From: Escherichia coli
GTDB lineage: Bacteria; Pseudomonadota; Gammaproteobacteria; Enterobacterales; Enterobacteriaceae
Assembly (NCBI RefSeq): GCF_003334255.1
Contig: NZ_QOWU01000018.1
DNA: 64,000 nt
Direction: 5' to 3' (one strand)
The notes beneath the pieces are model-generated. The model was given only the letters and a program-made list of their open reading frames with translations, had not been told where the DNA came from and made no database searches. Positions 47,772 to 48,343 of this stretch are shown piece by piece (the stretch's first letter is position 1; every line of letters starts with the position of its first letter). The position numbers were made by a program, and so were the translations under genes.

Positions 47772-48132
47772 CGTAACTTACTCATTATTCTTACATTGAC
47801 GACTAAGCTGCGGGCAAAGTAACGCCTTTCCGGGTGTGAACCGATGGCCTCGTGTCTAGTCGCGTCGCCAACCTCACGGTTATCGTCAGCTCAAAGAGGC
47901 GCAGAGTGTCGGTTGCCCGTTTTTCATGCGGAAAAACAGCGCAATTATCAAAGAAACAGACTGGGTATTACTCTCCAGAAATATTTCCATCTACCGGTAA
48001 GGACTGCAACCCGCAGCCCGCTAACTGCCTGAAAGATCAATACGTCTTACGCCATTGCTGCGTGGATGATCGGTCGGGCAAAATGGGTTATTCCGTAAAA
48101 TTTCTTGTTTTAACAAGGATGGACACGGAAAC
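47772..48132 (-). promoter_or_regulatory. rne autoregulatory 5' leader (length from literature, about 361 nt)
   Basis: Long untranslated region upstream of the rne ATG; extent taken from published work, not mapped from sequence. Confidence 0.55.
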
Positions 48133-48226
48133 GGCCTCATTATTCCACTGCAAGCCTTGTTATAGCAAGATGACTTTTACCATTTATCACCCGCTTACTC
48201 ACAGTTTTTTCACTTCTTGCTGGTGA
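47852..48226 (+). CDS. yceQ: Doubtful ORF YceQ, antisense to the rne leader/promoter
   Basis: 124-aa ORF in track; K-12 annotation has a roughly 106-aa yceQ here; Cys-rich, no recognisable domain, start uncertain. Confidence 0.25.
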
Positions 48227-48343
48227 TTGGTTTAATAACCATCAATAAAGTGATCACGCAGTGAAGTAATAAGGTGCAAAAGTAAATATAAGCATAGAAA
48301 AATGAGTGGCGCGAATCCTGTTGGCTAATTAGAATCGCCAACC

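Follow-up and report, generated by a model that had tools for sequence, protein, structure and literature searches.

Does the open reading frame that lies opposite the leader of rne in Escherichia coli encode a protein, serve as the template of an antisense RNA, or survive only as a relic of annotation? The question arises in a stretch of E. coli DNA of 64,000 nucleotides (hereafter the window), in which rne, the gene of RNase E (1061 aa; 44586..47771, minus strand), is followed by the divergent gene rluC, which encodes a 23S rRNA pseudouridine synthase (48344..49303, plus strand); both are placed by the list of ORFs and by the E. coli annotation. Between them lies the region 47772..48343. A preliminary description of this DNA had given its length as 572 bp, which is exact, as its bounds are set by the rne start at 47771 (minus strand) and the rluC start at 48344 (plus strand). 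The window is 100% identical to E. coli chromosomes, and a 721-bp query across the region was found in all 5426 complete E. coli genomes (at no less than 99% identity in 5397 of them). The best explanation of this spacer is regulatory DNA for rne together with the divergent promoter of rluC. The 124-codon frame within it, known as yceQ, is almost certainly not a gene but a chance open frame opposite the leader, the promoter and the DnaA site of rne.

The frame runs from 47852 to 48226 on the plus strand, starts with GTG and comprises 124 codons, to the base as first described. Over 47906..48226 its sequence is identical to yceQ/b1085 of K-12 ('uncharacterized protein YceQ'), which the MG1655 record annotates on the plus strand with 321 bp and 106 aa; the ORF in the window uses an upstream GTG and is longer for that reason (124 aa vs 106 aa). 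The product had been called Cys-rich, and it does contain 8 Cys among its 124 residues. By inspection, a pair of these residues (CAT TGC TGC GTG) is the reverse complement of ACGCAGCAAUGG, a conserved motif of the rne leader. The product had also been said to lack a recognizable domain. This holds for the profiles: a scan of the 124-aa product against the current Pfam-A library gave no match even at E<=10, to DUF2655 or otherwise, an NCBIfam scan gave none, and precomputed Pfam domains are lacking in all 32 of its relatives in the databases. On the other hand, databases do attach a domain name, since the K-12 MG1655 record lists the product of b1085 as a 'DUF2655 domain-containing protein'. 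YceQ-like proteins form only 32 clusters among 5.8 billion sequences (68-156 aa, mostly with partial coverage). Moreover, b1085 is kept only in the curated MG1655 record: PGAP placed no feature under the ORF in any of the 60 RefSeq genomes of E. coli that were drawn from across the ranking.

What, then, occupies the other strand? The preliminary description had placed the rne leader in this region, and a cmscan search bears this out with a match to the rne5 element (Rfam RF00040) at 47796..48132 on the minus strand. The match scores 260.1 bits, well above the curated gathering score of 180 (E=4.6e-82), and covers model positions 1-333 of 333. The whole 5' untranslated leader from promoter P1 measures 361 nt (47772..48132, minus strand), as delimited by Rfam and covariation. 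Aligned on the rne-sense strand across 18 Enterobacterales, the leader has a mean identity to E. coli of 0.84-0.97, and RNAalifold predicts a fold of 66 pairs in which 96.9% of cells are paired and 17 pairs show compensatory double changes. None of 500 column shuffles matched the observed paired percentage, the covariation score or the number of compensated pairs, and in a control in which the 3' partners were slid by 1-3 columns pairing fell to 28-42%. In comparison with Rfam rne5, the match is full-length, lies directly upstream of rne and has covariation-backed helices on the rne-sense strand; there is no difference, that is, this is the known element itself. This E. coli sequence is the one on which RF00040 was first defined. 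Several invariant or near-invariant pairs of the leader are G-U, which would become A-C mismatches if read on the plus strand. The selected structure is thus that of the rne transcript rather than that of an antisense RNA. RNase E senses its own activity via the stem-loops of the leader and degrades its own mRNA. This feedback is reportedly the subject of work by Jain and Belasco (1995), Diwa et al. (2000) and Schuck et al. (2009). A further Rfam match in the spacer, to mir-316 at 48193..48271 (E=0.71, 20 bits vs a gathering score of 80), was dismissed as chance.

The leader is not of the same length in all species. Insertions of 79-252 nt occur at one common point in Klebsiella pneumoniae, Enterobacteriaceae bacterium 89, Enterobacter sp. 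10-1 and Citrobacter braakii (L085:1225-1303, L086:1161-1279, L087:1190-1441 and L088:1340-1464), at a site that corresponds to the junction between 47990 and 47991 in E. coli. In our own reading of the Rfam structure line, this point lies in the rne5 multiloop, at a junction without base pairs. The insertion in C. braakii is a dispersed repeat, found at 15,260 places in 4,537 E. coli genomes (60-90% identity), and forms an extended hairpin when folded (-55.5 kcal/mol, z=-5.4); it resembles ERIC/IRU elements. In all 15 species without a repeat insertion, the rne-rluC spacer measures 569-576 nt despite many small indels, a near-constancy that suggests local compensation of indels. Outside the spacer, a TTG-initiated ORF of 560 codons (44598-46280, plus strand) lies antisense to the C-terminal half of rne, and is presumably a shadow ORF that owes its existence to skewed codon composition where rne encodes the scaffold region.

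Upstream of the leader, a consensus scan of 47650..48450 found a single sigma-70-like site on either strand. This is the rne P1 promoter (TTGCTA, an 18-nt spacer and TG-AATAAT; 48168..48139, minus strand), which sits inside the yceQ ORF and shows 89% identity across 18 species. With the promoter at this position, transcription would start near 48132, which coincides with the beginning of the Rfam rne5 model and agrees with the known 361-nt P1 leader. The rest of the divergent rne/rluC control region (48227..48343, no strand assigned), as delimited by the identity profile over the same number of species, consists of a variable spacer (48227..48279, identity 0.54) and a block directly upstream of the rluC start codon (48280..48343, identity 0.80). 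We expect the other upstream rne promoters within 48227..48343 (P2/P3, reportedly mapped by Ow et al. 2002), and GCTTATATT on the minus strand of 48280-48343 may be the -10 element of an upstream rne promoter. The block at 48280-48343 presumably holds the promoter and 5' UTR of rluC. Published work is in line with this picture, as the 555 bp upstream of rne have been described as carrying promoters P1-P4 (PMC8361080), and the rne promoter has been located within yceQ (10.1101/038851; 10.1101/237842).

A third element lies in the 3' part of the ORF. The double DnaA box TTTATCACCCGCTTACTCACAG (48183..48204, no strand assigned), an exact motif that occurs once in the whole window, sits 15 nt upstream of the -35 hexamer of P1 and shows about 87% identity across 18 species. 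A DnaA ChIP-seq peak that bears this motif has been labelled '(yceQ) rne' (PMC11317965). The site thus combines the two features of a DnaA-regulated promoter, a closely spaced pair of boxes and binding of DnaA in vivo, the latter taken from that study; regulation of rne by DnaA would be a candidate link. Altogether, three non-coding elements that serve rne (leader, P1 promoter and DnaA site) tile most of the yceQ ORF. The preliminary description had recognized the overlap of the ORF with the leader, which amounts to 281 nt in antisense orientation, but it omitted the promoter and the DnaA box.

Could the plus strand nevertheless be transcribed without being translated? A non-coding transcript over 47852..48226 might act as a cis-antisense RNA or as an 'excludon' partner of the rne leader, and would then modulate leader stability or P1 firing via RNase III cleavage or transcriptional interference. 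We regard this as quite improbable. The geometry noted at the outset does hold, in that any such RNA would be antisense to rne and its pairing would span the conserved stem-loops of the leader; the supposition of expression, however, found no support here or in the literature. In favour of a transcript, rne-yceQ is listed among 16 divergent excludons detected in E. coli RNA-seq by ExcludonFinder (PMC12288877). However, this program extends transcription units outward from annotated CDSs, so an overlap between the rne leader and the annotated yceQ CDS is built into its output. The listing is no demonstration of a plus-strand RNA, and we rejected it as proof of antisense transcription because the method depends on annotation. 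Against a transcript, the region offers nothing promoter-like apart from P1, which lies on the minus strand; the consensus scan of 47650..48450, a weak test, returned no sigma-70-like site on the plus strand. In a CRISPRi screen, depletion was confined to those dCas9 guides that are oriented to block rne transcription (Rousset et al., 10.1101/308916). The conserved G-U pairs, too, place selection on the minus-strand RNA. The start-site supplements of Mendoza-Vargas 2009 make no reference to yceQ. An RpoS genomic-SELEX entry near yceQ/rluC was set aside, as the table places it within rluC and its coordinates are uncertain.

Slightly less probable still is the alternative that YceQ is a real, young and Escherichia-restricted small Cys-rich protein, which would have originated de novo from the strand opposite the rne leader and be translated only in conditions that have not been sampled. 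Several features lend themselves to this reading. Both E. coli and E. albertii retain an undamaged ORF, and within E. coli its surroundings are nearly invariant, as the genome counts given above show. By inspection, the GTG at 47906 is preceded, at a distance of 6 nt, by a Shine-Dalgarno-like AAGAGG, which would permit translation if a plus-strand RNA existed. Finally, when the 572 bp were subjected to dinucleotide shuffling, an ORF of at least 124 aa turned up in 1.3% of the shuffles, and one of at least 106 aa in 4.1%. The ORF is thus somewhat long locally and unremarkable genome-wide. Against the protein stands, besides the outcome of the promoter scan, the codon usage of the ORF, which scores -0.205 bits per codon vs 0.168-0.404 for 26 real genes of the window. 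Negative coding scores of this kind are found in 42 of the 73 ORFs of 100-200 aa in the window; the codon usage of yceQ is non-genic and typical of shadow ORFs.

Comparison between species also bears on the protein. We used rne-rluC spacers from 19 Enterobacterales, assembled in two ways. Ten loci came from a scan of contigs with the N-terminal half of Rne, which returned mostly distant gammaproteobacteria; only 10 had an alignable full spacer. The other 9 were on contigs recruited via a called YceQ-like ORF, which tilts the set toward intact ORFs and makes it conservative for a non-coding conclusion. Even so, E. coli and E. albertii are the only two species in which the whole ORF survives. 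In each of the 17 others it is interrupted by 1-8 frameshifting indels and/or a premature stop. In Citrobacter amalonaticus, for example, the frame is free of any indel, yet it meets a stop after 82 codons. Enterobacter sp. Bisph1 and a JGI relative keep a long open frame by means of paired compensating indels, which is explicable by the tightly conserved length of the spacer (569-576 nt).

The substitutions within the frame tell the same story. The preliminary description had suggested weighing synonymous against non-synonymous changes, and purifying selection on the YceQ protein did not appear. With 16 species pooled, the yceQ frame has a pN/pS of 0.82, a value bracketed by those of the remaining five frames of this DNA (0.70-1.32), vs 0.02 in the first 291 nt of rne and 0.05 in the first 177 nt of rluC as controls; these are pooled pairwise values and not phylogenetically independent. 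At the same time, pS in the yceQ frame is 0.16, about one third of that in the flanking genes (0.48-0.53), which indicates a strong constraint that is blind to codon position. Divergence at codon positions 1/2/3 is 0.193/0.138/0.189, that is, without a third-position excess. Between E. coli and E. albertii, the two species with an intact ORF, the ratio of synonymous to non-synonymous differences is 1:3 in the ORF, vs 13:0 in rne and 11:0 in rluC. The longest database relative (P0003, 138 aa) has 62% protein identity to the yceQ product, whereas the spacer of Enterobacter sp. Bisph1, its presumed lineage, has about 84% DNA identity; the former is roughly the cube of 0.84, as for unconstrained codons. 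Taken together, the frame shows neither conservation, nor purifying selection on its amino acids, nor host-like codon usage, which are the marks of a genuine gene, and YceQ passes none of the tests for a protein family. That yceQ is conserved within E. coli follows from the leader, promoter and DnaA site beneath it.

Natural isolates of E. coli offer a further view of the ORF, as a few of them carry disruptions in it. In the O121 strain 201805972, ISEc11 is inserted at 48207-48209; in strain Z22-2, an IS1 at 48169-48177 (with a 9-bp duplication) abuts the -35 hexamer of P1; and in strain 30EVA1 a homopolymer at about 48205 has changed from T6 to T7, a frameshift that could be a sequencing error. 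These three disruptions of the frame all fall in the 3' end of the ORF, on the upstream side of the P1 core, and spare the leader. Their confinement to this side of P1 is consistent with a constraint that stems from rne expression and not from a YceQ protein. Frameshifted variants from E. coli/Shigella (P0009 and P0016) were not counted, as they carry many frameshifts and may be assembly errors. Outside the ORF, strains M217 and MSB1_8G have an IS1 near the rluC end of the spacer (48285-48293), likewise upstream of the P1 core.

Published experiments complete the case against the protein. Ribosome profiling had been proposed as a check on YceQ, and existing data provide it: Price et al. report that YceQ has no ribosome-profiling reads in three growth conditions and that the ORF is disrupted in some strains (10.1101/038851). 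In the same study, transposon insertions in yceQ are viable, and are tolerated only in the orientation able to drive rne (10.1101/038851). Goodall et al. found the same orientation bias in TraDIS and reclassified yceQ as non-essential (10.1101/237842). The 'essential' label of yceQ in deletion collections would reflect the removal of the rne promoter and leader. Synonymous TCG/TCA replacement at three yceQ codons proved impossible to introduce (PMC7614783), and the harm from yceQ recoding has been ascribed to misregulation of the adjacent essential gene (10.1101/2025.03.09.641718). In our coordinates, in-frame TCG/TCA codons start at 47909, 47924 and 47948, all inside the leader, and as they have nearly the reported spacing we infer that they are the three refractory codons.

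In sum, the reading of yceQ as an annotation carry-over rather than a real protein, offered tentatively at the start, is supported by the pN/pS of 0.82, the broken frames, the lack of ribosome footprints and the absence of the gene from PGAP annotation. We hold with high confidence that the spacer as a whole is the regulatory region of rne, with yceQ as an untranslated chance frame that yields no functional protein. On this explanation, the minus strand is transcribed from P1 into the 361-nt structured leader, through which, according to the literature, RNase E reads its own activity and degrades its own mRNA. Upstream of the leader lie the P1 core promoter and the double box bound by DnaA (its occupancy again being known from the literature). 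The stop-free frame on the opposite strand probably arose by chance and is present in E. coli and E. albertii, where it would persist only because the demands of RNA folding, P1 and DnaA binding leave the nucleotides little room to change. It would go untranslated, as published statements for a few laboratory conditions suggest, and would encode no functional protein.

The locus is ordinary, and the status of yceQ is already known in the E. coli literature. It adds no new biology of RNase E control; its noteworthy feature is the control region of rne, not a gene. We give very little credence to the opposite outcome, in which yceQ, set within the rne leader, would be an Escherichia-specific micro-gene of de novo origin or would template an antisense RNA, with condition-limited expression. 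If this were true, yceQ would couple some signal to RNase E levels. Under the favoured reading, that of a chance frame in the rne control region, the consequences are practical. In annotation and genome engineering, b1085 should count neither as a protein nor as an essential gene, and 'synonymous' edits in yceQ in fact alter the control elements of rne, namely its leader, its promoter and the DnaA site. The locus also provides a clear worked example of how nucleotide constraint on one strand can keep an open frame alive on the other.

In this respect yceQ resembles other cases in which annotated ORFs turned out to be regulatory DNA: yaaY, in the 5' UTR of its neighbour; psrO, upstream of pnp; and sroG, the ribB riboswitch. 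The elements and the neighbouring genes differ from those of yceQ, so the likeness is one of kind only. What yceQ shares with all three is that the apparent essentiality, or the orientation-specific effects of transposons and CRISPRi, come from the promoter or leader of an essential neighbour (10.1101/237842; 10.1101/308916; 10.1101/2025.03.09.641718).
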